From the UHGV virus genome UHGV-0208508: 14,298 nucleotides of DNA, one strand, 5' to 3'. The notes below the pieces were generated by a model, which did no database searches, was not told where the DNA came from, and was given only the letters and a program-made list of their open reading frames with translations. The translations under genes and the position numbers were made by a program. How positions within the stretch are numbered: the stretch's first letter is position 1; the number at the start of each line of letters is the position of its first letter. Origin of the DNA: a virus. Of the stretch, positions 1 through 14,062 are shown in pieces.

Positions 1-1
1 G

Positions 2-604
2 TCGAGCAACATGGTGCCGCCGATGTCGTACCGCTTTATGTACGGCCTGACTGAGTATCCGCTGGAAGGCAACAGCGCACTGCTGAAATCTCTTCAGGAC
101 AGCAACATCAACTACATCGGCACCGGCGCCGAAGGTGGACTCAGCAATAAAGTGCTGTTCACCGGCCGCATGCTCGATGGTAACCCGTTCAACTACTGGT
201 ATTCGGTGGCGTGGACGGCGATCAACCTTGAGCTCGACCTGGCGAATGAAATCATCAACGGCTCCAACACGACCGTTAACCCGCTGTACTACGAGCAGAA
301 GGGCATTGACCGCCTGCAGCGTCGCGCTCTGAAAACCATGCGTAATGGCATCAGCTACGGGCTGATCCTCGGTCGCGTCATCGACACGCAACTGACGCAG
401 GAAGATTTCGACACCGAGTATGACAAAGGCACTTACGCCGGCAACGCCGTGATCAACGCCGTGCCGTTCAGTAACTACAACAGCCTGAACCCCTCCGATT
501 ATCAGGAAGGCAAATATAACGGGCTGAGCGCCGTCATGACGCCGCGCCGCGGCTTCGAATCCATCACGTTTAACGTGAACGTAACGAACTTTGTAGGGGC
601 GTAA
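2..604 (+). CDS. Phage tail structural protein, C-terminal portion (possibly tail sheath); reading frame is open to the window edge so the 5' end is probably outside the window
   Basis: The frame has no stop between position 2 and the TAA at 602-604. The ATG at 11 has no ribosome-binding site within the 10 nt available. It lies directly upstream of a tube-sized ORF in a contractile-tail cluster. The sheath assignment is inference from gene order only. Confidence 0.55.
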   Translation, partial: SSNMVPPMSYRFMYGLTEYPLEGNSALLKSLQDSNINYIGTGAEGGLSNKVLFTGRMLDGNPFNYWYSVAWTAINLELDLANEIINGSNTTVNPLYYEQKGIDRLQRRALKTMRNGISYGLILGRVIDTQLTQEDFDTEYDKGTYAGNAVINAVPFSNYNSLNPSDYQEGKYNGLSAVMTPRRGFESITFNVNVTNFVGA

Positions 605-607
605 AAA

Positions 608-1045
608 ATGGCGAACCCATTAGTACCGCAGGGCTTCCTTAACCGCGTACGCGGGGCTCTTTCCGTCACGGACACACCGGCGCTGAACGTTTCTGCGTCG
701 TACCTGGCAAAGGACGGCATTAGCCTGCGTCCGGATGGCCCGGCGACCGACATCATCCCTACGATGACCGGAACCGTCGGCAGCCAGGCGCCGTATCAGC
801 AGGTAACGCTGACCGTGCATCTCCTGAAAACTCAGGGGCTGGGCGAAAGCTACCGGCAACGCTTTTTAACCGACACGTCGCTGGGTGAAATCGTGGTAAC
901 GCCGGATGCAACGACGTTCGGCAATATCACGCTGCTCAACTGCTATCTGGTCAACTTCAACGAGCTGGCTTTCAGCGGGATGGACCCGGCTTTTGTGGTA
1001 ACCATCAGCGGCTATATGGTCACCAACGACAACATGTGGGTGTAA
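608..1045 (+). CDS. Putative tail tube protein (145 aa)
   Basis: ATG at 608 is preceded by an AGGGG Shine-Dalgarno-like sequence and starts 3 nt after the upstream stop. Size and position (after the putative sheath, before the chaperone and tape measure) fit a tube protein. Function is inferred from synteny. Confidence 0.55.
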   Translation: MANPLVPQGFLNRVRGALSVTDTPALNVSASYLAKDGISLRPDGPATDIIPTMTGTVGSQAPYQQVTLTVHLLKTQGLGESYRQRFLTDTSLGEIVVTPDATTFGNITLLNCYLVNFNELAFSGMDPAFVVTISGYMVTNDNMWV

Positions 1046-1048
1046 TGC

Positions 1049-1621
1049 ATGAAAATTGACAAGAAACTGAATCTGGTCACCAACGTTACCCGCGAAGACG
1101 GCTCGATCGTATACCTGCATGTGACGCCATTCCCCTATGAGGTGGTGGAAGAACACTGCATCCTGCTGGGGAACCTGTTCACAAAATTCATCTCGCAGGT
1201 GGGTGGTCTTGGCGCCGCCAGAATCGCCGCGATGATGCTGAGGCAGAGCCTGAAAGCGGAAATCGATAACGGTCGGACAGGTCCGAACATCGTTGATGAA
1301 ATTCAGCGACTGACGGTCGTTATCCATAACGTCGGCGGCCAGTGGAACACCACGCCCCTTGAGATGGCATTCAAACAGGGGATTATCGACCCTGATGAGT
1401 ATCGCGAGGTCGAAGGCGAAGTGGTTTTTTTTATGGTTTCCTCTGCTATTCAGAAGGCAAACCTGATCGCGCCGACAGTGGGAACGGTGATCAAAATGTA
1501 CGATGGGCAACTAACCTCATCGAGCGTTACGGCGTTCCGCGATTCGTTGCAGACGTCGAAGCCGGATACCGATATCCCGACCCAGAATGCCCAGCCGGAA
1601 ACGTCATTTATACCCTCTTAG
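1049..1621 (+). CDS. Putative tail assembly chaperone (190 aa)
   Basis: It sits immediately upstream of the tape-measure gene, the conserved position of tail chaperones, and has an acidic C-terminal region. No frameshift extension ORF was found downstream. Confidence 0.45.
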   Translation: MKIDKKLNLVTNVTREDGSIVYLHVTPFPYEVVEEHCILLGNLFTKFISQVGGLGAARIAAMMLRQSLKAEIDNGRTGPNIVDEIQRLTVVIHNVGGQWNTTPLEMAFKQGIIDPDEYREVEGEVVFFMVSSAIQKANLIAPTVGTVIKMYDGQLTSSSVTAFRDSLQTSKPDTDIPTQNAQPETSFIPS

Positions 1622-1744
1622 ACTGGGCGTCTAATGAGGGATTCTGGCAGGTGATAAGGGAGATCACCGGCGAGGAGTATGCCAGCCCGGCGCAGTACCG
1701 GCAGCGCTACCTTCTCGCCGCGCTCAAAGAAAGAGGTTTCTTCA

Positions 1745-3562
1745 ATGGTAGCTAAGTCGATCGTCGACATTGACGTAAATGACGACAAGTTTGTCGCGTT
1801 TATGGAAAGGTTTCGCGAGTACCAGAGCGCGCTGGATGATTTACCGGAAGCCTGGCGAGTGGCTGCCGTTGGCATTGGCGAAAGCAGCAAGCAGACCGAA
1901 AAGGCCAAAGGTGAGGCGAAGGAGTTAGGCGCGGAGTTTAACGCCGTGGCCGAGGCCATTCTGACCATCAACAGCGGTATCGATCGGCTCAATACCAACC
2001 TGGAAGACTCGAAGAAAAAGCAGGGCGAATTCAACAAAAGCACCCGATCTGCGAAGGGCTTCCTCAGCGATGCGACGAAAGACGCTAAATCGCTGGCAGG
2101 TCACATCAAGGAAGCGACGGCCAGCCTTCTGTCCTGGGGTGGTATTGTCGGGATATTTACCGGCGTCCTTGGCATTGGCGGCCTGTTTGGCATCAACCGC
2201 CTGGCTGCCACCACCGGTGCCCAGCGGTTTACTTCTCTCGGGCTCGGGACGAGCATCGGCGCGCTGGATTCCACCGCCATAAACTACCAGAAAGCGCTGG
2301 GTAATCCGGCGGGGACGCTGGGCGCTATCCGCGATTCCCAGATGGACCTGTCGAAGCGCTGGACGTTTCAGGCTATGGGGATTAACAATCCCGACCAGGA
2401 CCCGGCCAAACTGCTCCCGCAGATGATCCGTAATGCGCGCGATATTTTCGTGCAGAACGGCAGCACGCTGCAGGGCGCACAGGCGCACGGCCTGACAAAC
2501 TTCTTTACGCTGGACGACCTGAACCGCTTCAAAAACATGAGCGATGAGGAGATCACCGCCATGGAGAAGCGCGCGCAGCAGGATGCGCGTATGTTGCAAA
2601 TTACCGACCAGCAGGCGCGTCAGTGGCAGGATTTTAACGTCCAGCTCGATTACAGCAGCCAGAGCATCAGAAACACGTTTGTGCGCGGCCTGGGTCCTCT
2701 CACACCTCAACTGAGAAAACTGTCTGATGCGCTGTCAGGCGCGATCGATACCGTCCTGAAATCCCCCGAACTCGGCAAGTGGATTGATGCGCTTGCCGGC
2801 GGCATTGAGCGATTCGGTAATTACCTCGCTTCTCCTGAATTTTCCACAGATGTAAGCAACTTTATGGACAAAGTAGAGAAAATGGGAAATCTAATTGGCA
2901 AGGTTATTGATTGGGTAACAGGGAAAGCGAGTATCTCTACTGCGGATATATCATCCGGGTCAACGATGTTGAGCCCAAGCACCATCATCGATCCGAAAAC
3001 GGGAAAATCCTATACTCCTGGAAGCAATGATGACCCGCATGTATGGGGCTGGCTCAAGGGTGTTAGGCGCTTCTTTGAAGATGGAACCGTTAAAGCTGTT
3101 GATCCCACACCTGCAAATACTTCCGACAGAAACAGGACTATTGCAGATCGATTTAATAATCCGGGAAATCTGCGGTGGGCTGAAGGATACAGCAGCGAGA
3201 ATACGAGAAGCGGTAAATTTGCCGTCTTCCCAACGCTGGATGAAGGCGTACTGGCGGCGACAAAGCAACTTCAAATGTATGGCGCTAAAGGAATAAATAC
3301 GGTAGGAGATATTGCAAGAAAATGGGCTCCTCCTAAGGAAAATAATACCGCTGAGTATATTCGGCATGTGGTTAAAACTACTGGATTTAATGAGAATCAG
3401 AAACTGAATCTCAATGATCCTCAGGTTATCGCGAAACTCATTTCTGCTATATCTCAAAAAGAAGGGGCTGGTAGCAGAGTTTCTGAGAGCACAGTCATTC
3501 AGATCTATAACAATACCGGCGGGAATGCAGTGGTAACTTCAGCGCAATTGGGGGCGAGGTAA
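1745..3562 (+). CDS. Tail tape measure protein (about 605 aa from ATG 1745; an alternative in-frame ATG lies at 1679)
   Basis: Strong ribosome-binding site AAGAAAGAGG before ATG 1745. It is the longest ORF in the tail module, with an N-terminal helical/charged region, a Gly-rich hydrophobic segment (LSWGGIVGIFTGVLGIGGLFGI), and a Q/A/R-rich helical central part. It sits between the chaperone and baseplate genes. Confidence 0.8.
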   Translation: MVAKSIVDIDVNDDKFVAFMERFREYQSALDDLPEAWRVAAVGIGESSKQTEKAKGEAKELGAEFNAVAEAILTINSGIDRLNTNLEDSKKKQGEFNKSTRSAKGFLSDATKDAKSLAGHIKEATASLLSWGGIVGIFTGVLGIGGLFGINRLAATTGAQRFTSLGLGTSIGALDSTAINYQKALGNPAGTLGAIRDSQMDLSKRWTFQAMGINNPDQDPAKLLPQMIRNARDIFVQNGSTLQGAQAHGLTNFFTLDDLNRFKNMSDEEITAMEKRAQQDARMLQITDQQARQWQDFNVQLDYSSQSIRNTFVRGLGPLTPQLRKLSDALSGAIDTVLKSPELGKWIDALAGGIERFGNYLASPEFSTDVSNFMDKVEKMGNLIGKVIDWVTGKASISTADISSGSTMLSPSTIIDPKTGKSYTPGSNDDPHVWGWLKGVRRFFEDGTVKAVDPTPANTSDRNRTIADRFNNPGNLRWAEGYSSENTRSGKFAVFPTLDEGVLAATKQLQMYGAKGINTVGDIARKWAPPKENNTAEYIRHVVKTTGFNENQKLNLNDPQVIAKLISAISQKEGAGSRVSESTVIQIYNNTGGNAVVTSAQLGAR

Positions 3563-4272
3563 TGGGATTCACACGTGAAATGTATAAGCTGGGTTTTGAA
3601 ATATCCCCAGTAATACTTTGCGGAGGGATAGCGCAGGCCATTCCTGGAGGAATGCTCCCGATCGTCGCTTTGACACAGAGCGCGAGCTTTGTTACGGGGC
3701 TGCTTGGAGGAGCCATAAACCTAACCGATCTGGATAAATATTTCTGCCACTGGCGACCGGTTCAGGGCGCCACAATGGTTGATTATGAAATTGCCAGATA
3801 CCCTTTCGCTAACCAGGTAGTAGCTGCGAACGCCTTGCTTGCTCAGCCTTTGCGCGTTTCGTTGGTAATGGAGGCCCCGGTCAATGAAAACACCGGGGCG
3901 ATGACAAAGCTCGTCACTATGAGTGCTTTGCAGTCTGTCCTTCAGGCGCATTCTAACTTAGGCGGCACGTTTATCGTCGCCACCCCATCCGTTATCTATA
4001 GCAACTGCATTTTGCGTGTAGTGAGGGACATTACCTCTGGTAACGATCCATTACCACAGCGTTCATGGATATGGGATTTCGAGCAGCCACTGATAACCGA
4101 TAATGGTGCAGAGCAGGCCGTGAACAATTTTTTAAACAAGATTGGCGCCGGGGATATGGTAACCGACCCATCCTGGACTAATACCGCCAATGCTCTTGGC
4201 AACACGCCTCTCGGGAGCTCTGTATCGGAAGCAATAACCGGCCTATTGGGTAAGTTGGGGGTAGGGCCATGA
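3562..4272 (+). CDS. Tail/baseplate assembly protein, uncharacterized (236 aa)
   Basis: Start ATG overlaps the tape-measure stop (TAATG) and is preceded by GGGGCGAGG. It is co-directional within the tail operon. No recognisable motif. Confidence 0.65.
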   Translation: MGFTREMYKLGFEISPVILCGGIAQAIPGGMLPIVALTQSASFVTGLLGGAINLTDLDKYFCHWRPVQGATMVDYEIARYPFANQVVAANALLAQPLRVSLVMEAPVNENTGAMTKLVTMSALQSVLQAHSNLGGTFIVATPSVIYSNCILRVVRDITSGNDPLPQRSWIWDFEQPLITDNGAEQAVNNFLNKIGAGDMVTDPSWTNTANALGNTPLGSSVSEAITGLLGKLGVGP

Positions 4273-4547
4273 CAACCCAGAATTATCCGTTTACCGGCAA
4301 TGATCGTCAAAGCATGACATTTACACCGATCCTTGATGGCACCGTCTATAACTGCCAGGTTAAATGGAACATTGCCGGGCTGAGGTGGTATGTCCTCATT
4401 ACAGATGGCTCTGGGAATACCATTCTAAATACCCCGCTCGTTGGCTCCGAGCTTAACGGTGGAATAAATATTATCTCCGGAGTGTTTAATTCGTCCTCCA
4501 TGTACTGGCGCGAACAGAATGGACTGATTGAGGTAAACAGTTCATGA
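4269..4547 (+). CDS. Small tail/baseplate-associated protein (92 aa), uncharacterized
   Basis: ATGA start/stop overlap with the upstream gene, a GGGGGTAGGG ribosome-binding site, and the stop overlaps the next start. Translational coupling pattern is typical of phage structural operons. Confidence 0.6.
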   Translation: MTTQNYPFTGNDRQSMTFTPILDGTVYNCQVKWNIAGLRWYVLITDGSGNTILNTPLVGSELNGGINIISGVFNSSSMYWREQNGLIEVNSS

Positions 4548-5581
4548 GATATTATGATATTGAGATAACCATTCCTGCTGAAGGTGCCTCTCCGGAAAGA
4601 ACGATAAAATACAGTAGCCATAAGAACGGAGTTTACAACCCCGGCGCCCTGATGATTGAGTTTGATATCCTCAGGTACGGTGAATCGACTCCCCAGGGCG
4701 AAACTCACCTGACCATCTGGGGTATTGGCCCAAAAGAAATGCAGCAGGCTCGCCAGAATTTTTTTGGCAAAAAAATTAAAATATTCCTTGGGATGAAAGA
4801 CGGGCTGCCATTGGCTGGCAAGGTTACCTCACCAAAACTGGTATTGGATGGCGTGATAAATCAGGTCTTTGGTAACTGGCAGGGTATTGAGTTACGACTT
4901 GACTTCATAATCGTGGTTGGTCCTGTCCAGAACGTGCCAAATAACAAACCCGTACCCCTTCCTTTAACCTTTGACTGGAAGGAGGGGCAGAAGCTTTCTG
5001 TAGCCCTCACGCAGTGTTTTATGAACATCAGAGGGTATACGTTCAATATCAACATAAGCGACCGGCTAATCCTTAATCATTACCGGGGGCTGTTTTGTGA
5101 TGACATTGTCACCCTGGCCAAGGACCTTAATGCTTTTTCACGTTCCAGAATTCGCGATAGCGGGTACTCTGGTGTAGAGATCGCAATAGTGAATGGTAAT
5201 GAGATCCGGGTATGGGATAACGATTATGATAACCACCCGGATAAGACTTCTGTTTCCAGCGCCGTAGCCAGAAGCAACAGCCCAACCCAAATAGATTTCA
5301 AGGATTTGATAGGGCAGCCGACATGGGTGGCATTTAACACAATCAGCATGGCGTGCGTAATGCGCGGTGATATTCAGGTTGGCGATCACATCCTGATGCC
5401 TAAAAAAAGCACTCCGTTGATACAGGCCTCTTCGTACTCTCAGTATCGAGAAGACTCTGCCTTTACTGGCGACTTTATTGTGAACTCCGTTCGCCTGTTA
5501 GGGAATAGCAGGCAACCAACGGCAGAGGCATGGGTAACAATTATTGAGGCTTCCCCTTTCATTAAGGCAGGTAGTGCATGA
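4544..5581 (+). CDS. Putative baseplate hub protein (345 aa)
   Basis: GAGGT ribosome-binding site. It lies immediately upstream of the spike gene, the position of the hub (P2 gpD / Mu gp44-type) in contractile-tail clusters. The assignment is positional inference. Confidence 0.6.
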   Translation: MRYYDIEITIPAEGASPERTIKYSSHKNGVYNPGALMIEFDILRYGESTPQGETHLTIWGIGPKEMQQARQNFFGKKIKIFLGMKDGLPLAGKVTSPKLVLDGVINQVFGNWQGIELRLDFIIVVGPVQNVPNNKPVPLPLTFDWKEGQKLSVALTQCFMNIRGYTFNINISDRLILNHYRGLFCDDIVTLAKDLNAFSRSRIRDSGYSGVEIAIVNGNEIRVWDNDYDNHPDKTSVSSAVARSNSPTQIDFKDLIGQPTWVAFNTISMACVMRGDIQVGDHILMPKKSTPLIQASSYSQYREDSAFTGDFIVNSVRLLGNSRQPTAEAWVTIIEASPFIKAGSA

Positions 5582-6294
5582 GCATCGACAACAAGCTTAA
5601 TTTTGCCTCAAGCATGAACAGGTTTACTGAAAGAAAGATTGAAAATGCGCTTCAAAAATCAGGGAAAGTTCTTCCGGCGAGCGTGGTTAAGCAAACTGGG
5701 AATATGATCACCGTCTCCTTCGAGCTAAGGGATATCCCATATGTTTTGCCGCAAGTGACTATCCCCTTATTTGGCCCTCAATATATTCGTTACCCTATGC
5801 AGCCGGGAGATAAGGGGATTGTTATCCCCGCAGATACTTACATTGGCGGCGTTAGCGGTCAGGGAGGCGGCATTGCAGATATGACTCCGCCAGCAAACTT
5901 AAGCGCCCTCGTTTTCTTGCCGATCAGTAATACCGAGTGGCAGGGTGTCGACGGACAGGTGGTGACGGTATACGGGCCGGAGGGTGTAACGCTGCGCGAC
6001 AGTGGCAGCAACACGACGTTTCTCCTGAAGCCTGACAGCATCGCCATTTCCACACCTGACAGCTTCACCGTCACCGTTGGCGGGACAGTTTTCTCACTGA
6101 CGGGTAGCAAATGGAGCCTTTCAGGCCAGGCTGGTCACCTGCAGGATTCAGTGGCCAGTACTAGCCCTGCAATCATGCACGCCGGGTGGCAGTCGCTTCT
6201 GACCTGGCTTAACAGCCATGAACATTCAAACGGCAACGATGGAAATGATACCGGGGGGCCGACTTCAACGTTTAACGGGAGTATCACCGAGTGA
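5578..6294 (+). CDS. Baseplate central spike protein, gpV-like (238 aa)
   Basis: ATGA overlap with the upstream gene. Gly-rich beta-type sequence with a C-terminal His-x-His motif (SHEHSNGNDGNDTGG), reminiscent of the metal-binding tip of P2 gpV-type spikes. It sits just before W-like and J-like genes. Confidence 0.65.
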   Translation: MSIDNKLNFASSMNRFTERKIENALQKSGKVLPASVVKQTGNMITVSFELRDIPYVLPQVTIPLFGPQYIRYPMQPGDKGIVIPADTYIGGVSGQGGGIADMTPPANLSALVFLPISNTEWQGVDGQVVTVYGPEGVTLRDSGSNTTFLLKPDSIAISTPDSFTVTVGGTVFSLTGSKWSLSGQAGHLQDSVASTSPAIMHAGWQSLLTWLNSHEHSNGNDGNDTGGPTSTFNGSITE

Positions 6295-6623
6295 GAACCT
6301 ATGGCCGAAACTCTGAGGGGAAGTGGGTCCTGGTGGAAACCGACGAAAATGGGTTTAATGACTTGGTGTATTTAACCACCCTGATCCAGAATCTGAAACT
6401 GGCGCCGCAGGAGTCACCCTTTTATGCGAACAACGGAATCCCGGCCGCCGGGTCGGTGATCCAGCAAATCCTGCCGACGTATTACGTAAACCGTATTCAG
6501 AAACAGTTCAGCCAGTATTTTTCCTCGCTGCAGATTGCACTGATCAGCGACGACCCGCCTGTTTATAACATCTCGGCAATCACAAATGCAGGTTCAAAAA
6601 TAATTACACAGGTGGCCGTATGA
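6291..6623 (+). CDS. Putative baseplate wedge protein (W/gp25-like, 110 aa)
   Basis: GTG start overlapping the upstream TGA (GTGA). Size and position directly upstream of the J-like gene fit the V-W-J-I order of P2/Mu-type baseplates. Inference from synteny and size. Confidence 0.55.
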   Translation: MRTYGRNSEGKWVLVETDENGFNDLVYLTTLIQNLKLAPQESPFYANNGIPAAGSVIQQILPTYYVNRIQKQFSQYFSSLQIALISDDPPVYNISAITNAGSKIITQVAV

Positions 6624-8038
6624 GCGATTTACCAGTCAGCTATACGTCAGCAGGCCCGGTTCCTCTGACGCCGGAAGAGCTACGAGCACAGCTCGTTTCT
6701 CAGGCAATTGCGCTATCTCCGGGACTCACAACTGATTTGCCTGGATCTCTGATTGAGGACGTGGCCAGTACCGATGTCGGCGCGCTCATCGTTTGTGATC
6801 AAGCAAGGGTTGACCTGATTAACTCGGTGGGGCCACTAAAGGCTAACCTGGCCATGCTGGAGCTTCTCGCACAGCAGGCTGGTATTCCTGGGCAGAAAAC
6901 GGCTGGCACAACAACAGTCCCGGTTCAGTTTTCCGGCCCCGCGGGATTTGTTATCCCACAGGGGTTTATTGTTTCTGATGGGACCTATACCTATTCAGTC
7001 AGTGATGCGACGATTATCTCGTCGTCTGGAGTATCTGCCAGCGTATCATGCGAGGGAACGGAGACCGGGACCTGGGCGGTGCCGGTAAATACGGTTAACC
7101 AGATCATATCCAGTCTACCGTCTGACGTCACCATCACCTGCACCAACCCGATCGCCGGCACTCCGGGTGCTGACCCGGAAACGAACTATCAGTTTCGTGA
7201 TCGCGTATGGCAGGCGCAGATGGCCACCGTTCAGGGATATCCTGGATTTATCCGGCAATATCTCACCAGCCTTGATAACGTGCAGGCGCGCCTGGTTTCT
7301 GTCATTCAGGACGGGGATAAATGGATAGTCATGTGTGCCGGCGGTGATATTTACGATATTGCTGGCGCGCTCTATAAGTCTGCGGGGGATATCAGCCGGC
7401 TGAAAGGGTGTTCACTGAACGTAACGGGAATCACGAATGCAAATCCTGGTGTCGTCAGCACAGACCTGACTCATGGTTACACTGACGGCCAGGTTATCCG
7501 GATCACTGGCGTTACCGGGATGACGGGTATTAATGACGTCCCTCTGACCGTGACGGTACTGTCTCCTCACACGTTTTCCATCGGGATTGACACCACGTCA
7601 TCCGGGACCTGGGGAGGCGGCGGCGAGGTGACACCGAACGTCAGAAACAATACCGTGACGGTGAATGACTGGCCTGATAACTACGTGATCCCGTTCGTGA
7701 CGCCATTGCTGCAGCGGGTCACTGTGACGTATCAGTGGGGGACAGAAAGTGTTAACTACCTGACAGATGCCACGGTCGCCTCTCTGGTCTCGGCGCCTAC
7801 GATTCAGTATGTGAACGGCATATTCGCCGGGAAACCGCTGAACGTTAACAACCTGAAAGACGCATTCTTACAGGCGATTAACTCGACAATCGACATGGGG
7901 CTGATCAGCACTTTAAACGTCGTGGTCACCATCAATGGTGTGATAACACCACCGGATGCCGGGACGAATATCATCAGCGGCGATAAGTTCAGTTATTTTT
8001 ATATCGCGTCGGATGGCGTGATCGTAACAGGGGCGTAG
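6620..8038 (+). CDS. Baseplate J-like protein (472 aa)
   Basis: ATGA overlap with the upstream gene and an AGGTGG ribosome-binding site. A large protein between the W-like and I-like genes, which is the conserved position of baseplate J / gp6-type wedge proteins. Confidence 0.7.
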   Translation: MSDLPVSYTSAGPVPLTPEELRAQLVSQAIALSPGLTTDLPGSLIEDVASTDVGALIVCDQARVDLINSVGPLKANLAMLELLAQQAGIPGQKTAGTTTVPVQFSGPAGFVIPQGFIVSDGTYTYSVSDATIISSSGVSASVSCEGTETGTWAVPVNTVNQIISSLPSDVTITCTNPIAGTPGADPETNYQFRDRVWQAQMATVQGYPGFIRQYLTSLDNVQARLVSVIQDGDKWIVMCAGGDIYDIAGALYKSAGDISRLKGCSLNVTGITNANPGVVSTDLTHGYTDGQVIRITGVTGMTGINDVPLTVTVLSPHTFSIGIDTTSSGTWGGGGEVTPNVRNNTVTVNDWPDNYVIPFVTPLLQRVTVTYQWGTESVNYLTDATVASLVSAPTIQYVNGIFAGKPLNVNNLKDAFLQAINSTIDMGLISTLNVVVTINGVITPPDAGTNIISGDKFSYFYIASDGVIVTGA

Positions 8039-8039
8039 C

Positions 8040-8744
8040 ATGCTGGACGATATCATCCGGTCGTATATGTATACGCAATACAACGACGATGAAAATCTGC
8101 GGGCGTTTTTTACTGCGTATAACTCGATGGCGCAGGGCATTTATGACTGGATGGTTAATGCCAACCTGCCGATTTTCATCGGTGACTACAACACCGGAGA
8201 TCAGCTCCGGTGGATTGCCCATGGCATCTATGGCGTTTTGCCGCCGGTGATTTCCAGCAGCGATCAGCAGGAGATAGGCCCATATAACACCTTCGAATTT
8301 AACCAACTGGCATTCAATGAATACCGGGTGATTGACCAGTCGAACCAGGTTGTTGTCTCCGATGACCTTTTTAAGCGGATCATGACCTGGAATTTTTATA
8401 AAGGTGACGGCTTCTATTTCTCTATCCCATGGATAAAACGGCGTATTCTGCGGTTCCTGTTGGGAGTGAATGGCACCGATATCCTCAATGACCAGCGGTG
8501 GAGTATATCGATCCAGTTTGTGGATGGCGGGATCGTGATATCCATCTATAAGGGGCGCCGCAGGTTCACGCGGAGCGCTATCTACAACGCATCGGCCTAT
8601 AACTCCAGGAAGTACAACCAGAAGGACACGGCCTTTGTGATCACCGAGGATTTCGAGTTCGCTATTTTCTTCAAGCAGGCCATGGATAGCGGCCTGCTTC
8701 ACATGCCGTTTTACCAGTCAGTCACGGTTGAGATATTTGACTAG
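8040..8744 (+). CDS. Baseplate/tail protein I-like (234 aa)
   Basis: Starts 2 nt after the J-like stop with an AGGGGCG ribosome-binding site. Position between J-like and the tail-fiber genes matches P2 gpI / Mu gp48-type proteins. Confidence 0.6.
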   Translation: MLDDIIRSYMYTQYNDDENLRAFFTAYNSMAQGIYDWMVNANLPIFIGDYNTGDQLRWIAHGIYGVLPPVISSSDQQEIGPYNTFEFNQLAFNEYRVIDQSNQVVVSDDLFKRIMTWNFYKGDGFYFSIPWIKRRILRFLLGVNGTDILNDQRWSISIQFVDGGIVISIYKGRRRFTRSAIYNASAYNSRKYNQKDTAFVITEDFEFAIFFKQAMDSGLLHMPFYQSVTVEIFD

Positions 8745-8996
8745 GTTTTTATCTCGATTATCTATTGTTATATACAAATGAGATTTAACGCACTGACAAA
8801 TTATATGCAGCACAACTATTGATAAAAACAAAATGGATGACATTTTTATCATATCTATTGGCGGCATTCCTTGCTGAAAAAGAAATCCAAATAAAATAGT
8901 AAGCAAGGCGCAAGAAAGGAGTATTAATAAAGTAGATAGCGTTCCTAAAAGTATTTTTAAAATAGCAATAGAAGCATTATTCATAATATTCACCAT
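8718..8996 (-). CDS. Hypothetical small hydrophobic (two predicted transmembrane segments) protein encoded antisense in an AT-rich island; may be an artefact of AT-rich composition
   Basis: 92-codon minus-strand ORF, strongly hydrophobic (ASIAILKILLGTLSTLLILLSCALLTILFGFLF and MSSILFLSIVVLHIICQCV). No convincing Shine-Dalgarno sequence at the first ATG (a weak GGTG precedes the second ATG). AT-rich DNA readily yields Ile/Leu/Phe-rich ORFs by chance. Confidence 0.25.
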   Translation of the reverse strand: MVNIMNNASIAILKILLGTLSTLLILLSCALLTILFGFLFQQGMPPIDMIKMSSILFLSIVVLHIICQCVKSHLYITIDNRDKNLVKYLNRD

Positions 8997-9002
8997 TTAA
9001 AA

Positions 9003-9026
9003 GGCCGCGCTTGCGGTTTTTTTATT
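9003..9026 (+). terminator. Putative rho-independent terminator-like hairpin with T-tract (CCGC-GCTT-GCGG followed by TTTTTTT), flanked upstream by an A-run so possibly bidirectional
   Basis: Short GC stem (4-5 bp) with a tetraloop, directly followed by 7 T residues on the plus strand. It lies about 20 nt upstream of the first fiber gene's ribosome-binding site. Confidence 0.4.
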
Positions 9027-9045
9027 GCCTAATCCCGGAGGATAC

Positions 9046-11790
9046 ATGGCACTAACCCTTTTGGCTACAAACAACGCAGAAAGCACGCTGGCTTCTGCTA
9101 TCAGCGCAACCGACACGTCGCTGATCGTTAGCGCTGGAACTGGTGCCGAGTTCCCTGATGCTGTGGCAGGCGAGAGCTACTTTAAACTCACGCTCACCGA
9201 TGCCGCCACCGGCTCACAGGTTGAGATCGTGAACGTGACAGCTAAGGCTGGGGACATCTTCACGATTGAACGTGCGCAAGAAGGAACGCTGGCGCGTTCG
9301 TGGGCGGCCAACGACATGGTTGCCAACATGATGACGGCGGATACGCTGAACATTATCGCTCAATATGCCCAGCAGGCAGCTGCATCAGCAGCACAGGCTG
9401 CTGAGTATGCAGATAACGCTTCTGACTACGCACAGAATAAGTTCACGTTCTTTAAGACCGCCAGCGATCCTGATGGCACTATTGCCGGGCTGGCCGCAAC
9501 GACTGAAGGGCAGTCATTCTGGGTAGCCCAAGGTCCAGATGCGCTTTCTGCTGCATGGCAGTATCAGAATGTTGCGGGTGTAGCCGTGTTACAGGCTAAG
9601 CAGCCAGGAACAGCGGCTATAACCGGGACAATCCGCGAATTTCCCACGCTGGAGGCGGCACAGGCCGACGCCGATGCTGGCAATATTCCTACAGGTTCAA
9701 ATGCGTATTATCGAAGCGCTGACGACACAACTCTTGCGATTGAGGTAATCAACAACGCCGGTACGTTGACAGCAACCGGAAGAAAAATTCCAGCGTATTC
9801 CGCTTTGCGCAGAGGCAACATTTTATTCGACGCATTTAATGAATATTCAGCTGTTGATCCTAAGTTTGGTGCCTGGGACTGGTATCGCGGAGCTACTGTT
9901 ACATTTAGTACTACTGATGCCAACATTCCGTTACCGACTCCAGTGGCACAGTATTCCGGCGTATGGTCTGCAGATAAATATTATGACCTTGCCCGCCTGC
10001 CTGTAAGGGTAGGCGATCAATTAACCTTTTCTGTGCTGGCATGGTTTCAGGATGCCGGTGCTAAGTTCCATATATTCTGGATGTCCGCGAGCGGTACGAT
10101 AATATCCTCAAAATCCGTAACTGGACTGGCTTCAGGAATTAATGTTCCAGTTTTAACAGATATTGTTCCTGCTGGGGCGTCGTATGTACGAATTCGCGTA
10201 GAAAACACGACAACAGGATCGTTCAAGGTGGGAGCCTATGCGTCCGCTGTTGGTTCTATTCAGCCTGAATTTATTCGTGCCGCTCCTGACAAGACCTATA
10301 TGTCAGCGATTGTCTCTTCAGGCATCGCTGGCCTAACCTCGCGCGTGGATGCGTTGCAGGGGGCCATTTCTGTTGGGTATCCGTATGCAGCGACCTGGCA
10401 GGTTGGTAAATTTGTAAACCCAAATACCGGGGAAATAACAGATAATGCTGCGCTGAACTGTACCATAATTCCTCATAGTGACGGGGACGGTTGGCTGGTT
10501 ACTGCTCTCGTTACTGGATCGGCCACAGCTCTGGCTGTGTATATGAATGCGGCTGGCACAGTGCTGGGAGTGGAGGGGCGCGGAACAACAACGCCGCAGC
10601 AGTATACGAATTACCGCCTTAACGTTCCGTCGGGAACCACGCAGATCGGCATAACCGGTCGTAATTCTGCTCCAATGTCTGTTAAGAAATTGGCCGTTGT
10701 TGAAACTGCTACTGTACTGGCTAGCATCGATTCTCTCGATTCACGTGTACAGAAAATAGAAGATTCGCTGGTTTACGATTTCGTTCAGCAGGATGTCCCT
10801 ATTACGTCTGGAGCATATATAAACCGATCTACCGGTGCCGTCGTAACAAACTCTGCATTTGATTGTTCGATATTTGACTATACAACAGGAGATCGCTGGA
10901 AAGTTACGGCAAGGGTGAATGGAACGAGCGTATCACTCGCTGTATATTTTAATTCAGTGGGCACTGTCATTGGGACGGAAGGCGATGGTACATCAGCATC
11001 TGTGGATTACATTGATTATGAGCTGACGCCACCAACCGGCACTGCCAGGATAGGCATCACAACACGGGTTGCACTTCCTATAGTTGCTAAAAAATATGTC
11101 ATTGTTCCCAGCGGAAGTACAGTAAGTCCGTGGTCGGGAAAAATTATTGATGTAATGGGAGACAGCAACGTAGCCTATAACAAATGGCAACCGCTGGTTG
11201 CTAGTGAACTTGGTTGTTCTTTCCTGAACCATGGTGTTGGTGGTTCAAAGATCGCCAAACCCGATAGTTCACCGACACAAATCAGCATGTGTGACGACGC
11301 CAGGATTAATGCCCTCGATACGACGGCCACTGCCTGGATTTGTGGCCCGTGGGGGACAAATGACTGGGCGCAAAATATACCCATTGGAACTATTAGTGAC
11401 ACTGTGAATACCACGGTCTATGGTGCGCTAGTCATAATTGCACAAAAGCTTAGGGCGAGAGCACCAACCAAGCCTATTTTTTGGGTTACTCCATTCAACG
11501 GAGATTATGAAACTGGGAGGACTAGTTCATGGGTTGATGGGGAAACTAACCAATATGGCAGGGTGTCTGATTATTCTGCTGCAATTCGAGCTGTAGCTCT
11601 GCGATATGGCTTCCCATTGATTGATTTAAATGCAGATTGTGGGTGGACAAAATTTAATAGTAGTTATTTTTTGCTAACGGAAGGTGATACTAACCCTTCT
11701 CATATTCATTTAAATGATAGTGCTGGTCCAGCCAGAATTTCGGAGTTGGTAATAGATCGTTTAACGGCCCTTGCGAATTTGGCCAACTAG
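9046..11790 (+). CDS. Tail fiber / tailspike protein with C-terminal SGNH/GDSL-family hydrolase (esterase-like) domain (about 914 aa from ATG 9046)
   Basis: GGAGGA ribosome-binding site before ATG 9046. N-terminal about 105 aa is homologous to the N-terminus of the downstream fiber. An Ala/Gln-rich probable coiled-coil segment follows, then beta-rich repeats. The C-terminus carries GDS (VMGDSNV), a conserved Gly block (NHGVGGSK), GxND (WGTNDW) and a His block (NPSHIHLND). Confidence 0.85.
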   Translation: MALTLLATNNAESTLASAISATDTSLIVSAGTGAEFPDAVAGESYFKLTLTDAATGSQVEIVNVTAKAGDIFTIERAQEGTLARSWAANDMVANMMTADTLNIIAQYAQQAAASAAQAAEYADNASDYAQNKFTFFKTASDPDGTIAGLAATTEGQSFWVAQGPDALSAAWQYQNVAGVAVLQAKQPGTAAITGTIREFPTLEAAQADADAGNIPTGSNAYYRSADDTTLAIEVINNAGTLTATGRKIPAYSALRRGNILFDAFNEYSAVDPKFGAWDWYRGATVTFSTTDANIPLPTPVAQYSGVWSADKYYDLARLPVRVGDQLTFSVLAWFQDAGAKFHIFWMSASGTIISSKSVTGLASGINVPVLTDIVPAGASYVRIRVENTTTGSFKVGAYASAVGSIQPEFIRAAPDKTYMSAIVSSGIAGLTSRVDALQGAISVGYPYAATWQVGKFVNPNTGEITDNAALNCTIIPHSDGDGWLVTALVTGSATALAVYMNAAGTVLGVEGRGTTTPQQYTNYRLNVPSGTTQIGITGRNSAPMSVKKLAVVETATVLASIDSLDSRVQKIEDSLVYDFVQQDVPITSGAYINRSTGAVVTNSAFDCSIFDYTTGDRWKVTARVNGTSVSLAVYFNSVGTVIGTEGDGTSASVDYIDYELTPPTGTARIGITTRVALPIVAKKYVIVPSGSTVSPWSGKIIDVMGDSNVAYNKWQPLVASELGCSFLNHGVGGSKIAKPDSSPTQISMCDDARINALDTTATAWICGPWGTNDWAQNIPIGTISDTVNTTVYGALVIIAQKLRARAPTKPIFWVTPFNGDYETGRTSSWVDGETNQYGRVSDYSAAIRAVALRYGFPLIDLNADCGWTKFNSSYFLLTEGDTNPSHIHLNDSAGPARISELVIDRLTALANLAN
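10405..11106 (+). repeat. Two tandem homologous domain repeats of about 100 codons each inside the first fiber gene (about 10405-10701 and 10810-11106), diverged at nucleotide level
   Basis: Protein-level alignment by eye: GWLVTALVTGSATALAVYMNAAGTVLGVEGRGTTTPQQYTNYRLNVPSGTTQIGITGR versus RWKVTARVNGTSVSLAVYFNSVGTVIGTEGDGTSASVDYIDYELTPPTGTARIGITTR. Confidence 0.6.
11131..11787 (+). other. SGNH/GDSL hydrolase-like catalytic domain at the C-terminus of the first fiber (predicted catalytic Ser codon at 11164-11166)
   Basis: Ordered motif blocks typical of SGNH hydrolases: GDS near the domain start, a conserved Gly, GxND, and a C-terminal Asp/His block. Assigned from motif order only, with no profile search. 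Confidence 0.6.
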
Positions 11791-11865: not shown

Positions 11866-12897
11866 ATGGCGCTTAAGCTATTAGCCAATAATAACGCAAA
11901 GAGTGTTCTCGCTGCGGGTATTAGCGCGTCCGCTACCGTTATTACCGTGGGTACCGGAGCGGGGGCTTTATTCCCTTCCCCTGTATCTGGACAGAGTTAT
12001 TTCAAATTAACGATAACCGACGCGGCCACGAAAACAATTTCTGAAATTATGCACGTCACGTCTGTATCCGGTGACGTGATGACAGTAATTCGTGGTCAGG
12101 AAGGAACTACGGCACGCGTATGGTCAACAAATGACATTGTCGCGAATCTAATGACAGCCGGATCATTGTTATCGTTCCTGCAGATCAGTAATAACCTGTC
12201 AGAAATTAAAGATGCCGGTGATGATGCGGTAAATGAAGCCCGTTATAACCTCGGAATATCTGATTCCTCTGGTTTTGTCGGGCGTTCACTTGGCGCTCCA
12301 AAAGTTTTCTATGCAAACGGAACCTATACGCGATCTCCTCTGGCCCGTTATGCAAAAGTAACGTTGACCGGTGCCGGTGGCGGCGGTGGCGGCTGCCAGG
12401 CATCTAATAACACCGAAACCTTTTCCGGTGCCGGCGGCGGCGCGGGTGCGACCATTATCGTATGGGTTGACCTGTCTGCTGCCAGTTCTTACGCGATTAC
12501 TGTCGGCAAGGGTGGTAAGGGCGGAGTTGGCGCAGTAAGTGGTGCGGATGGTGGTGCTACCTCGTTTGCCAGCCTGTTCTCAGCTCCTGGCGGGAAAGGC
12601 GGCGTGAAGTCAGGCGTGTCCAATACCGCCGGCGGCGCCGGAGGTACGGCGGCGACCGGAGATATCAGGATCAACGGTGGTACCGGCTCAGATGGACAGA
12701 CAGGCTCAAGCCTTCTGACGGGAAACGGCGGGGCGTCGTATTTTGGCGGCGGTGGCCGGGCGGGTTCTCAGGCCGGTATTGCTGGCGCAGCTCCCGGATC
12801 CGGTGGTGGTGGCGCGTATGACCTTGGGTTTACCGGTACGGCATTTACCGGTGGTGATGGTGCTACTGGCATGGCGATCGTGGAAGAATTCGCGTAA
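11866..12897 (+). CDS. Second tail fiber / receptor-binding protein with glycine-rich C-terminal domain (343 aa)
   Basis: AGGGG ribosome-binding site before ATG 11866. N-terminal about 105 aa aligns with the first fiber N-terminus (MALxLLAxNNAxSxLAxxISAxxT...SYFKLTxTDAAT...QEGTxAR.W..ND.VAN.MTA). The C-terminal about 180 aa are dominated by GG/GGG/GGGG motifs separated by short variable segments. Confidence 0.8.
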   Translation: MALKLLANNNAKSVLAAGISASATVITVGTGAGALFPSPVSGQSYFKLTITDAATKTISEIMHVTSVSGDVMTVIRGQEGTTARVWSTNDIVANLMTAGSLLSFLQISNNLSEIKDAGDDAVNEARYNLGISDSSGFVGRSLGAPKVFYANGTYTRSPLARYAKVTLTGAGGGGGGCQASNNTETFSGAGGGAGATIIVWVDLSAASSYAITVGKGGKGGVGAVSGADGGATSFASLFSAPGGKGGVKSGVSNTAGGAGGTAATGDIRINGGTGSDGQTGSSLLTGNGGASYFGGGGRAGSQAGIAGAAPGSGGGGAYDLGFTGTAFTGGDGATGMAIVEEFA

Positions 12898-12901
12898 TGG
12901 C

Positions 12902-14062
12902 TTACACTCCTGCACGACCATCGATGTAATCAGCCCACCACTGCATCATTTCTCTGCGCTTATCTAGATACTGAGCATGGTTGTAAATACCGCGCACAGA
13001 TCCGCCGTTGGCATGTGCCAGCTGCACTTCAATAGCGTCAGCAGGCCATTCGTGCTCGTTCATAATCGTGCTGAATTCATGCCTGAATCCGTGACCGCTT
13101 TCCAGACCCTCATAGCCGATTTGTTTGATCACAAGCAGTACCGCATTCTCGCAGATTGGCTTCTTCTTATCGTTGCGCCCGGCAAAAACAAACTCTGAGA
13201 CTGGTTTGGTGATTGAGCTTAGCGTAGTGAGAAGTTCAACCACCTGGTCTGACATAGGAACAACATGAATCTTGCGGCCCTTCATCACACTGGCGTCGAT
13301 AGTGATAATCCTGTTTTCAAAATCGACGTTCTTCCATAGCATGGAACGAAGCTCTTTTGTTCTGAGGGCTGTGTAGCGTAAAACTTTGGTCGCAATGAGC
13401 GATACGATACTTCCTGAAAATGTTGCCAGTGCTTTGTTGAATGCAGGGATCTGGTCTGCTGGGAGAAACGGGAAGTTCTTCTTGCGGTATCCCTTCATGG
13501 CGTCAGCAAGGTCAGGTGCCGGGTTATATTTAGCCCTTCCGGTGACAATAGCGTAACGGAAAACCTCGCCGCATCTTCTGCGTGCTTTGTTGGCTCGCTC
13601 CATTGCACCGCGATCTTCAAATCTGCGGATTACTTCCAGCAGTTGCATCGGCTCAATATCCTGAATTTCAAGGCCGCCGATGATAGGTAAAATGTCGTCA
13701 TCAAACATTTTTGCAAGTTCAGTTGCATACCCTACTGACCATACTTGCTTCTTGTGCTCGTACCATTCTTTGTAAATCGCACTAAAGGAATTGTTGTTAG
13801 ACGAAGCCTTTTTCGCTTTTACCGGATCGATGCCAACCGAGATGTCTTTCCTCGCGGTCCATGCTTTATCTCTTGCCTCCTGCAAAGTCATAAGCGGATA
13901 TTTTCCGACGGTCAGGATTTTCTCCTTACCGTCAATCTTGTAGCGAAGCTGCCATACCTTTTTCCCTGACACAGGGACATAAAGGTACAGGCCATTACCA
14001 TCGAGTAGGCGGTATGGTTTTTCTTTCGGCTTTGCTGCTTCAATCTGCTTAACGGTGAGCAT
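12902..14062 (-). CDS. Phage integrase, tyrosine recombinase of the P4/IntS-like family (386 aa from the ATG at 14060-14062; an in-frame GTG at 14096-14098 would add 12 codons)
   Basis: 398-codon minus-strand ORF with C-terminal catalytic-domain signatures (HGFRHEF for His-x-x-Arg, and RGIYNHAQY with the presumptive catalytic Tyr) and an N-terminal arm-type DNA-binding region. It lies about 125-160 bp from a co-oriented tRNA gene, the canonical integrase-tRNA arrangement. Confidence 0.9.
   Translation of the reverse strand: MLTVKQIEAAKPKEKPYRLLDGNGLYLYVPVSGKKVWQLRYKIDGKEKILTVGKYPLMTLQEARDKAWTARKDISVGIDPVKAKKASSNNNSFSAIYKEWYEHKKQVWSVGYATELAKMFDDDILPIIGGLEIQDIEPMQLLEVIRRFEDRGAMERANKARRRCGEVFRYAIVTGRAKYNPAPDLADAMKGYRKKNFPFLPADQIPAFNKALATFSGSIVSLIATKVLRYTALRTKELRSMLWKNVDFENRIITIDASVMKGRKIHVVPMSDQVVELLTTLSSITKPVSEFVFAGRNDKKKPICENAVLLVIKQIGYEGLESGHGFRHEFSTIMNEHEWPADAIEVQLAHANGGSVRGIYNHAQYLDKRREMMQWWADYIDGRAGV

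Follow-up and report, generated by a model that had tools for sequence, protein, structure and literature searches.

Does the abrupt change in base composition inside a phage tape-measure gene mark a horizontally exchanged segment, and if so, was the baseplate-proximal half of the tail exchanged as a single unit? The gene in question lies in a 14,298-nt stretch of viral DNA (UHGV-0208508, hereafter the window), for which an initial annotation had proposed one AT-rich exchanged block between about positions 2815 and 5581. Our analysis indicates that the AT-rich stretch very probably consists of two adjacent modules (B and C) that have been exchanged independently among related phages, with module B carrying the putative enzyme domain of the tape-measure protein.

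Judging by nucleotide identity, the window appears to cover the tail genes of an E. coli prophage belonging to the Felixviridae, a Chronis/RothC-like temperate myovirus. Chronis and RothC, both Klebsiella phages, are 95–99% identical to it, as are prophages from 49 E. coli genomes; over positions 1–8740, identity is 95–97% to Chronis (91% coverage) and to RothC (67% coverage) where the sequences can be aligned, with 14 kb of genome compared. The taxonomy of the Felixviridae (subfamily Maevirinae; Chronisvirus/Nakavirus-like) follows published work that sets whole-genome nucleotide similarity of at least 45% for a subfamily and at least 70% for a genus (10.1101/2024.12.02.626457, PMC12451628). 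The prophage is integrated at tRNA-Arg, with the integrase and tRNA-Arg at the right end of the window. The comparison set for mosaicism comprised about 60 related loci.

The tape-measure gene (1679..3562, + strand) matches PHROG 7694 (E = 1.5e-215) and PHROG 2276, "tail length tape measure protein" (E = 2e-28), and sits between the sheath C-terminus, g145 and g190 upstream and the baseplate genes downstream. Gene order, which places it between the tail tube/chaperone genes and the baseplate hub genes, and PHROG homology both identify it as a tape-measure gene, and its RothC homologue is annotated as a tape measure protein. Counted from the first ATG the protein has 627 aa; RefSeq relatives begin at the equivalent of position 1745.

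Base composition along the window was examined in 300-nt windows, where GC content is 0.55–0.61 across 1951–2850, falls to 0.42–0.49 across 2701–3750, stays at 0.44–0.54 until approximately 5850 and is back at 0.53–0.58 from 5701–6150. Unsupervised segmentation of third-position GC (GC3) over every + strand gene between 11 and 8744 yields three segments (11–2692, GC3 0.724; 2693–5901, 0.494; 5902–8744, 0.631). For the best single change point the log-likelihood ratio is 36.2, whereas 500 permutations gave at most 8.0. Inside the tape-measure gene, GC3 is 0.70 in codons 1–385 and 0.39 in codons 386–608 (Fisher p = 1e-13). As GC2 is unchanged between the same codons (0.44 vs 0.45) and the GC1 shift is weak (p = 0.04), the difference is one of codon choice and not of amino-acid content. 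The compositional break proposed near 2815 is thus real, with GC3 falling near 2700–2830: the left change point lies at 2695 statistically and at 2795–2853 by alignment to relatives, a range that includes 2815, and the junction is within about 20–40 nt of the proposed position. The right change point had been placed at 5581, ahead of the J-like gene, and must be moved about 340 nt further, to approximately 5900–5920 within the gene at 5578–6294, where GC3 is 0.49 in the first 108 codons and 0.66 in the remainder. The trough between these points is uneven, with GC3 lower in the tape-measure C-terminal segment (0.39) than in the next three genes (0.525, p = 5e-4).

A shift of this kind could in principle arise without exchange, if selection or mutation bias tied to expression level, amino-acid content or translation speed acted locally on genes inherited vertically. 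Consistent with this, GC3 decreases through the operon, from the genes of abundant proteins (sheath 0.77, g145 0.74) to those of the low-copy baseplate (about 0.52), and a GC3 in the cassette below that of the tape-measure N-terminal part recurs in several unrelated lineages. However, the step falls within one gene, so that expression level does not explain it, GC2 is flat across it, and at the same position the alleles of other lineages span GC3 values of 0.39 to 0.67. Identity to relatives moreover collapses exactly where the composition steps, and the trees described below conflict at 100% bootstrap. We regard this explanation as extremely unlikely.

Alignment to relatives places the junctions more precisely. 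The GC-rich backbone part of the tape-measure gene (1679..2794, + strand; GC3 about 0.70–0.72) shares 95–99% nucleotide identity with Chronis, RothC and E. coli prophages. Near its end, immediately 5′ of the left junctions, lies a conserved sequence (2768..2789, + strand; GAACTCGGCAAGTGGATTGATG) encoding PELGKWID, which is near-invariant in 9 of 9 aligned alleles, even those that diverge from 2790 on; the peptide motif recurs in the homologue consensus. The left junction zone itself (2795..2853, + strand) varies in its exact point with the partner genome. The last flank mismatch in carriers of the window's allele is at 2794, and similarity to the window stops at about 2790 in relatives L006, L012, L024 and L025, at 2835 in Chronis and L003, and at 2853 in RothC. 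Relatives that are 95–98% identical upstream thus lose all nucleotide similarity at 2835 or 2853, and the suggestion of a recombination junction inside the tape-measure gene is borne out by this non-uniform similarity. From 3503, nucleotide identity to Chronis, L003 and L006 picks up again. This is the right junction of module B relative to the Chronis-type phages, and it coincides with the sequence for the extreme C-terminus and stop codon (3503..3562, + strand; IYNNTGGNAVVTSAQLGAR), whose 19-residue product is 100% identical in relatives carrying the alternative, SLT allele.

As the origin of the break, an assembly chimera or a window artefact is scarcely credible, and we found no support for either. 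The reading frame is intact, and about 30 complete E. coli genomes, together with 8 IMG/VR contigs, show the identical architecture (99.4–100% over 2780–3560); because so many complete genomes share it, the junctions are unlikely to be assembly errors.

Module B (2836..3502, + strand; GC 0.44, GC3 0.39) encodes residues about 386–608 of the tape-measure protein, comprising a linker and a putative Enc34-type muralytic domain. Its nucleotide sequence matches none of Chronis, L003 and L006, though its flanks are 95–98% identical, and its product is only 24–26% identical in amino acids to the SLT cassettes of these three. Chronis gp14 ("putative lytic transglycosylase", Klebsiella phage vB_Kpn_Chronis) and its E. 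coli prophage homologues are the same gene in the same position with the same neighbours. Their tape-measure protein is 95–99% identical to that of the window over an N-terminal segment of 363 residues and identical in the last 19, whereas at residues about 386–608 Chronis has an SLT domain (PF01464) where the window has the Enc34-type domain; a forced global alignment of this part gives 24% amino-acid identity, with no nucleotide similarity. A Pfam scan of the window, L001, L002, L004, L005 and L006 found SLT in L001, L002 and L006 (E about 1e-18 to 1e-20); in the L003 record, the gene is annotated as a lytic transglycosylase domain protein. No SLT match at E ≤ 1 was obtained in the tape-measure protein of the window, which rules out an SLT allele for its cassette, nor in L004 or L005. 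The SLT and Enc34-type domains are mutually unalignable, and module B is a non-homologous replacement.

The assignment of the domain (residues 490–601; 3146..3481, + strand) to the Enc34-type (PHA02564) lysozyme-fold catalytic domains comes from phmmer searches against the PDB and from Foldseek. Its best PDB match by phmmer is Gp29 (9vvp_L, E = 4.5e-15), and the Enc34 endolysin catalytic domain (7q47) is matched at E = 5.2e-7 (query residues 106–212, chain residues 11–134). 7Q47 is also the sole significant Foldseek match (E = 3.8e-4, probability 1.00, target TM 0.52) of the predicted model, which is helical with a mean pLDDT of 64.6 and values below 50 at its residues 84–131 and in the first part of the domain. 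By alignment, Trp549 (3323..3325, + strand; cassette W164) corresponds to Enc34 Trp79, Tyr560 (3356..3358, + strand; cassette Y175) to Tyr95 and Glu595 (3461..3463, + strand; cassette E210) to the catalytic Glu131. In Enc34, Trp79 and Tyr95 belong to the groove and Glu131 is catalytic (PMC8943055). This Trp/Tyr/Glu signature is nearly invariant across 14 homologues, so that the domain has both the sequence similarity to Enc34 and the catalytic Glu with the groove Trp and Tyr. We therefore predict a glycosidase.

The endolysin of Hafnia phage Enc34 (ORF39; PHA02564; 7Q47), with which the domain shares its sequence match and signature, is a free lysis-cassette enzyme of 26 kDa that carries a two-helix membrane domain at its C-terminus (PMC8943055). 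In the window, unlike in ORF39, the domain lies within the 627-aa protein, close to the C-terminal end, and is followed by only a 26-residue tail with no membrane domain. An Enc34 endolysin orthologue is accordingly ruled out for the protein as a whole, which is not a stand-alone lysis enzyme and has no C-terminal transmembrane domain. Embedded in a tape-measure protein, the domain would act at entry and not at lysis. Gp29 of 9VVP, another very large protein (1295 aa), likewise has the domain at one of its ends, at residues 6–117; its placement is N-terminal in Gp29 and C-terminal in the tape-measure protein of the window. A literature search for PDB entry 9VVP returned no paper.

The allele of module B in the window is nearly clonal: 10 carriers that differ by 1.3–5.2% in their flanks show 0–2 mismatches over 708 nt. 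The cassette of L009 has 1 mismatch where about 30 are expected (P = 4e-12) and that of L015 has 0 where about 13 are expected (P = 2e-6); in L009, dS is 0.007 in the cassette and 0.21–0.24 in the flanks. The opposite pattern is seen in L025 and L012, where dS is saturated in the cassette and 0.20–0.42 in the flanks. Rapid diversification in place, driven by an arms race of the tape-measure C-terminus with the host wall and requiring no recombination, is a conceivable source of such differences, as rapid evolution is common in phage proteins on the receptor and wall sides, and the Enc34-type cassettes found on Chronis-like backbones group in a single clade roughly parallel to the backbone clade. 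Against it, cassette dN/dS is low (0.04–0.14) wherever it can be computed; where dS is saturated, the ratio is undefined and dN is about 0.11. In addition, SLT and Enc34-type domains share no alignable sequence, and identical cassettes occur on backbones 1–5% apart and with both types of module C. In-place evolution is thus very unlikely, and the combination of saturated cassette dS with flank dS of 0.2–0.4 appears best explained by the swapping of old alleles.

Module C (3503..5920, + strand; GC3 about 0.52) comprises the end of the tape-measure gene, three further genes and the first ~110 codons of a fourth. These are g236, an unnamed tail/baseplate protein (3562..4272, + strand; PHROG 7750) conserved in position in all relatives; a 92-aa baseplate plug-like protein (4269..4547, + strand; PHROG 8737; Pfam Pam3_gp18 at E = 1.8e-4, below the gathering score), whose homologue in TC24 carries the annotation "phage baseplate plug protein"; a 345-aa baseplate hub-like protein (4544..5581, + strand; PHROG 196, "baseplate hub", E = 1.2e-33); and g238, an unnamed baseplate protein (5578..6294, + strand) with no match in Pfam, PHROG, NCBIfam or PDB. 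The right junction lies within g238 at about 5900–5920, where identity to RothC and L010 rises from at most 80% to at least 93% (at about 5920), coincident with the GC3 step at 5901; the Baseplate_J gene (6620–8038) is beyond this boundary. Module C occurs as two deeply divergent types: RothC, L010, L011, L025, L027 and L041 carry an alternative with 47–82% amino-acid identity, and the type found in the window is the commoner among the relatives sampled. In neighbour-joining trees of tblastn-extracted segments, module C conflicts with the flanking regions A and D at 100% bootstrap. The baseplate-proximal genes therefore have a history different from that of the sheath, tube and tape-measure N-terminal part, as had been proposed.

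Were B and C imported together? All four combinations of the two modules exist: Enc34 cassette with window-type C (the window, L007–9), SLT with window-type C (L001, L003, L006), SLT with RothC-type C (L002) and Enc34 cassette with RothC-type C (L010, L011, L041). At least two modules, B and C, therefore assort independently, and of the initial proposal the exchange stands and the single segment does not. A single recent import of one contiguous segment (about 2815–5581) from a distant lower-GC phage, replacing the native baseplate-proximal half of the tail, would account for the one low-GC3 segment (2693–5901) and for the matching GC3 of Yersinia-phage relatives (about 0.40–0.45). It would also fit the parallel behaviour of B and C in two comparisons, with dS of 2–3 or saturated against 0.4–0.9 in the flanks for L024/L026, and of 0.007–0.055 against 0.21–0.24 for L007/L009. 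Besides recombining separately, however, the modules differ in GC3, and B is near-clonal where C is not. In neither B nor C does any low-GC relative come nearer to the window than the backbone relatives do, and the Yersinia type is just 54–67% identical in amino acids in B and 60–82% in C. We consider a single import unlikely.

Two independently exchanged modules remain the preferred reading, and low GC is rejected as a mark of recent import from a distant donor. The nearest non-identical cassettes (78–82% amino-acid identity) are on closely related backbones, and the Enc34-type cassettes on Chronis-like backbones are a clade of their own, all with low GC3; no donor lineage for the low-GC modules was found among the relatives compared. 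Low GC3 is thus a long-standing trait of the cassette clade to which module B belongs, and in both modules it may reflect a history in a lower-GC gene pool. Because no donor was found, the cassette clade is itself low in GC3 and the window-type module C is the commoner one, composition does not reveal the direction of transfer.

The most likely route of exchange is homologous recombination within short islands of conserved sequence, which at the module boundaries are found at 2768–2789 and 3503–3690; the former may serve as a recombination anchor. A repeat search of 2500–6100 returned only short repeats at chance level, and a shufflon, an invertase switch and a diversity-generating retroelement were rejected, as flanking inverted or template repeats are lacking. 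The locus shows abrupt identity changes, incongruent trees and conserved boundary sequence, the features of phage mosaicism. Temperate phages of the lambdoid type exchange modules at conserved boundaries; with this classical mosaicism the locus shares sharp shifts in identity, junctions that fall within genes at domain boundaries, conflicting trees and non-homologous alternative modules at one position, and there is no difference in principle. Some E. coli genomes harbour two such prophages with differing module combinations, which provides an opportunity for recombination.

Tape-measure proteins with peptidoglycan hydrolase domains that help the tail cross the wall include T5 Pb2 and mycobacteriophage TM4 Tmp; these phages are siphoviruses with other enzyme families, whereas the phage of the window has a contractile tail. 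In the mechanism we propose, the tape-measure protein would lie inside the tail tube, its C-terminal end positioned at the baseplate hub, and tail contraction would expel it into the periplasm, where the Enc34-type domain would cut peptidoglycan locally and let the tube pass. Module B would then be an enzymatic payload framed by a conserved N-terminal body and the conserved 19-residue C-terminal tail; because assembly contacts would be made by these conserved ends, the enzyme between them could be replaced. Module C would encode the proteins adjoining the tape-measure tip (g236, plug, hub and the start of g238). The system represents well-documented but ordinary phage mosaicism in which the combination of domains is modestly new, and the window provides a well-resolved example of it in the recently named family Felixviridae.

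The genes between 11 and 12897 all lie on the + strand and together encode a contractile tail: the sheath C-terminus (11-604), g145 (608-1045), g190 (1049-1621), a tape-measure protein of 627 aa (1679-3562), g236 (3562-4272), a Pam3-gp18-like plug (4269-4547), the baseplate hub (4544-5581), g238 (5578-6294), g110 (6291-6623), a Baseplate_J protein (6620-8038), g234 (8040-8744), a tail fibre with an SGNH/GDSL esterase domain (9025-11790) and a glycine-rich fibre-related protein (11866-12897). At the right end, an IntS-like tyrosine integrase is encoded on the − strand (12902-14098), and the last feature of the window is a tRNA-Arg(CCT) (14224-14298). Positions 1-8740 are 95-97% identical, where alignable, to the Klebsiella phages vB_Kpn_Chronis and RothC/RothD, and identity reaches 99% with prophages found in 49 of 5426 complete E. 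coli genomes. Because phages of the Chronis and RothC/RothD type are classed as Felixviridae, subfamily Maevirinae (10.1101/2024.12.02.626457, PMC12451628), the window appears to be the right arm of a Felixviridae prophage in E. coli. The integrase beside the tRNA marks the prophage end, with a probable attachment site there; sequence from this end of the window was found in all 5426 E. coli genomes searched. The Baseplate_J protein contains an inserted domain matching the FCCH domain of ubiquitin-activating enzyme E1 (PF16190, E = 4e-14, residues 275-338), which is why RefSeq names this phage protein after a eukaryotic enzyme. PDB searches with the hub and g238 returned zero matches, and NCBIfam searches with g236, hub, g238 and others yielded no names.

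The initial annotation described an AT-rich block from ~2815, inside the tape-measure gene, to ~5581, with GC-rich sequence returning in the J-like gene, and suggested that it is one horizontally exchanged segment. The compositional break is real. In 300-nt windows, GC falls from 0.55-0.61 (1951-2850) to 0.42-0.49 (2701-3750), stays at 0.44-0.54 up to ~5850 and then returns to 0.53-0.58. Within the tape-measure gene, GC3 is 0.70 in codons 1-385 versus 0.39 in codons 386-608 (p = 1e-13), with GC2 unchanged across the break. Likelihood segmentation of the third positions of all genes in 11-8744 revealed three segments (11-2692, GC3 0.724; 2693-5901, 0.494; 5902-8744, 0.631), with a log-likelihood ratio of 36.2 for the change point against a permutation maximum of 8.0. 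The proposed right end is ~320-340 nt short: composition recovers inside g238, ahead of the Baseplate_J gene, with GC3 of 0.49 in the first 108 codons of g238 and 0.66 in the remainder. The trough itself is stepped, with GC3 of 0.39 in the tape-measure part against 0.525 across the next three genes (p = 5e-4).

Comparison with related loci (L-numbers) divides the trough into two modules. Chronis (L001) and an E. coli prophage (L003) are 95.6% and 98.4% identical to the window over 1-2835, respectively, and both are 97-98% identical over 3503-8740; between 2835 and 3503 neither has nucleotide similarity to it. The RothC (L002) match extends to 2853, and L006, L012, L024 and L025 diverge from ~2790. 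This sharp loss of identity places a junction within the tape-measure gene, close to the 2815 first proposed, so that a compositional step spotted by eye can locate real recombination junctions within a few tens of bases. The exchanged cassette, module B (2836-3502, residues ~386-608), adjoins a conserved island on its left, GAACTCGGCAAGTGGATTGATG (PELGKWID, 2768-2789), and on its right the conserved last 19 codons of the gene, IYNNTGGNAVVTSAQLGAR, with the start of the next gene.

The cassette carries a predicted muralytic domain of one of two types. A Pfam lytic transglycosylase (SLT) domain was found in L001, L002 and L006 (E 3e-18 to 8e-20), and for L003 the evidence is its record, which annotates the gene as a lytic transglycosylase domain protein. 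The Pfam SLT domain is absent from the window, from the TC24 prophage (L004) and from a Yersinia phage (L005). The Enc34 enzyme, which defines family PHA02564, has experimentally established muralytic activity and a divergent lysozyme fold, with Glu131, Trp79 and Tyr95 as its proposed catalytic signature (PMC8943055). These residues align with Glu595, Trp549 and Tyr560 of the window's protein and are nearly invariant among homologues. Structure prediction gave a helical model of modest quality (pLDDT 64.6), whose sole significant PDB match is 7Q47, the Enc34 domain. From alignment and prediction, this tape-measure region, now annotated 'hypothetical protein', is probably an Enc34-type peptidoglycan glycosidase. 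Between the SLT and Enc34 types, alignment is possible only over ~45 residues at the start of the cassette and 19 at the end of the protein. Felixviridae alternate two unrelated, predicted wall-cutting enzymes at one tape-measure position, and an Enc34-type enzyme inside a tape-measure protein is a modestly new domain combination.

Module C runs from 3503 to ~5920, through the end of the tape-measure gene, g236, the plug, the hub and the first ~110 codons of g238. A second version of it occurs in RothC, L010, L011, L025, L027 and L041, with amino acid identities to the window of 74-79% (g236), 69-70% (plug), 47-48% (hub) and 82-84% (g238). In these carriers the sheath, tube, tape-measure N-terminal part, g110 and Baseplate_J are still 96-100% identical to the window, except in L027, where some flanking proteins are lower (e.g., 83% in the tape-measure N-terminal part). 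The identity of RothC and L010 to the window jumps from ≤80% to ≥93% at ~5920, coinciding with the GC3 step at 5901. We built neighbour-joining trees (200 bootstraps) for region A (sheath to tape-measure N-terminal part), module C and region D (g110 and Baseplate_J). Trees A and D each recover a clade of Chronis-like loci with L024/L026/L027 at 100%. In tree C that clade splits in two with 100% support: the window type joins L024/L026 and next L035/38/44/55, and the RothC type joins L027 and next L029/33/63. The baseplate-proximal part of the tail has a different history from the sheath, tube and tape-measure N-terminal part, as first proposed.

A single import ending at 5581 does not describe this history, as B and C are separate units and all four of their four possible combinations are present among the loci: the Enc34 cassette with window-type C (window, L007-L009, L015-L022), the SLT cassette with window-type C (L001, L003, L006), the SLT cassette with RothC-type C (L002) and the Enc34 cassette with RothC-type C (L010, L011, L041). 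L010 and L011 have window-type sequence until ~3690 and RothC-type sequence thereafter. Some E. coli genomes contain two such prophages with different B/C combinations, giving an opportunity for recombination. E. coli AJ5 (NZ_OZ547122.1) has two Felixviridae prophages on one chromosome, H27 (2924910-2933715) and L011 (3347315-3360095), with opposite combinations (SLT with window-type C versus Enc34 with RothC-type C), a natural setting for the inferred recombination; two places are also occupied in several other genomes. Junctions, replacement, assortment and conflicting trees are all observed in these loci, and the stretch is classical phage mosaicism resolved to the domain level.

To follow the cassette separately from its flanks, we tabulated dS between the window and each locus by gene segment. 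Against L025, dS is 0.20 in the tape-measure N-terminal part, saturated in the cassette and 0.31 in Baseplate_J (g236 and hub not applicable, C being RothC-type); against L012 (Raoultella planticola), it is 0.42, saturated and 0.31, respectively, with 0.43 in g236 and 0.16 in the hub. Against L009, it is 0.21 in the N-terminal part, 0.007 in the cassette, 0.055 in g236, 0.036 in the hub and 0.235 in Baseplate_J. dN/dS is low in every computable comparison and undefined where dS is saturated. Ten carriers have 0-2 cassette mismatches in 708 nt, against differences of 1.3-3.4% in the upstream and 1.7-5.2% in the downstream flank. One mismatch was observed in L009 versus ~30 expected (P = 4e-12), and none in L015 versus ~13 expected (P = 2e-6). 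The window's allele occurs at ≥99.4% identity in ~30 E. coli genomes; in 13 others the query matches only in the conserved flanks, and the ten of these records listed have an SLT-annotated gene in 10 of 10 cases. Sequence comparison indicates that the cassette is swapped rather than fast-evolving and that the allele in the window is near-clonal. A sweep of module C is only partly supported by its low diversity (0.2-2.3%, a range that overlaps the 1.3-5.2% of the flanks), and clear clonality is limited to module B.

Modules B and C have lower GC3 than region A (~0.72), whose codon usage we take to be Klebsiella-like. The majority of Felixviridae are predicted to infect Klebsiella (10.1101/2024.12.02.626457 / PMC12451628). 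On Chronis-like backbones, the Enc34-type cassettes belong to one clade with three deep alleles, and GC3 is 0.38-0.46 throughout. In other lineages Enc34-type domains reach 0.67, so low GC3 is not a property of the domain itself. We found no lower-GC relatives closer to the window than its backbone relatives in B or C. Given the single low-GC3 clade and no closer lower-GC relative, the low GC3 of the window's cassette lineage is an old, unameliorated property. In the IMG/VR loci L024 and L026, the trough over the region homologous to 2836-5920 is even deeper (GC3 0.70 in the tape-measure N-terminal part, 0.43-0.46 in the cassette, 0.45 in g236, 0.38-0.39 in the hub); their module C proteins are nonetheless 80-95% identical to the window's, and synonymous sites are saturated.

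In the phage collection, a distant blastn search matched nothing but Yersinia phages (71% over 409 nt); GTDB genomes gave 3 loci (best 83% aa), IMG/VR 51 loci and a search of 5.8 billion proteins a best non-self match of 71-75%. Outside the window's own allele group, the phage collection, GTDB, IMG/VR and protein searches returned nothing closer than 78-82% aa, so no donor can be named. A Yersinia-type origin, which would match in GC3, was rejected because identity is lower than to higher-GC relatives. Site-specific or repeat-mediated switching was also rejected, as repeats occur at chance level only. Within the block, no PHROG family matches the antisense ORFs, an Rfam scan found no family, and sites resembling promoters or terminators are no more numerous than shuffling predicts.

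Other regions also vary. Within the GC-rich tape-measure part, 1800-2250 is a high-diversity patch (pi 6-7% versus ~2% nearby), where Chronis is only 77% identical to the window at 1951-2100; the patch is probably one more short tract that was exchanged. A very AT-rich gap (8745-9024, GC ~0.30) separates g234 from the tail-fibre gene, and relatives have variable small cargo genes there, such as a 'lysozyme inhibitor LprI family protein' (L003, L008) or other hypothetical genes. The tail fibre or spike (921 aa, C-terminal PF13472 domain, GC3 0.435) is conserved with relatives only in its first ~250-770 nt, so that another intragenic mosaic junction lies in the receptor-binding protein. Raoultella ornithinolytica NBRC 105727 (L014:4903-6729) encodes an orphan tape-measure homologue of 608 aa, also present in L053, L054, L057, L058 and L061, with 83-84% aa identity to the window in the N-terminal part and 53-56% in the Enc34-type cassette. 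It has no other tail gene within ~12 kb; nearby genes encode a Ser/Thr kinase with a PP2C phosphatase, a T5orf172 protein and an Abi_2 abortive-infection protein. The homologue may be left over from a prophage or may have been co-opted within a defence-like island.

Muralytic domains of tape-measure proteins and the simple baseplates of myoviruses are the basis of a proposed mechanism. The conserved N-terminal body and C-terminal tail would preserve tail-assembly contacts, and the intervening enzyme would enter the periplasm at contraction and open the peptidoglycan. Homologous recombination within these conserved flanks could then insert any enzyme fit for wall opening.

We consider it unlikely that the muralytic cassette of the Felixviridae tape-measure protein is a balanced polymorphism and a host-range determinant, with a recent sweep and a shared pool. 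If it were, the unrelated SLT and Enc34-type classes, with several ancient alleles in each, would persist and be shuffled because hosts differ in how they modify peptidoglycan or in their periplasmic lysozyme/transglycosylase inhibitors, and cassette type would determine host range after adsorption. The near-clonal spread of the window's allele among diverged prophages of E. coli would then reflect a recent selective sweep, and the persistent low GC3 a cassette pool common to hosts of differing GC.

The general view of phage evolution is left unchanged. The stretch provides a clean, quantified case of mosaicism at the level of protein domains, in a gut-associated phage family defined only recently, and its cassette boundaries are natural swap points for phage engineering. 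The alternation of enzymes is useful for annotation and for asking if the entry enzyme affects host range.
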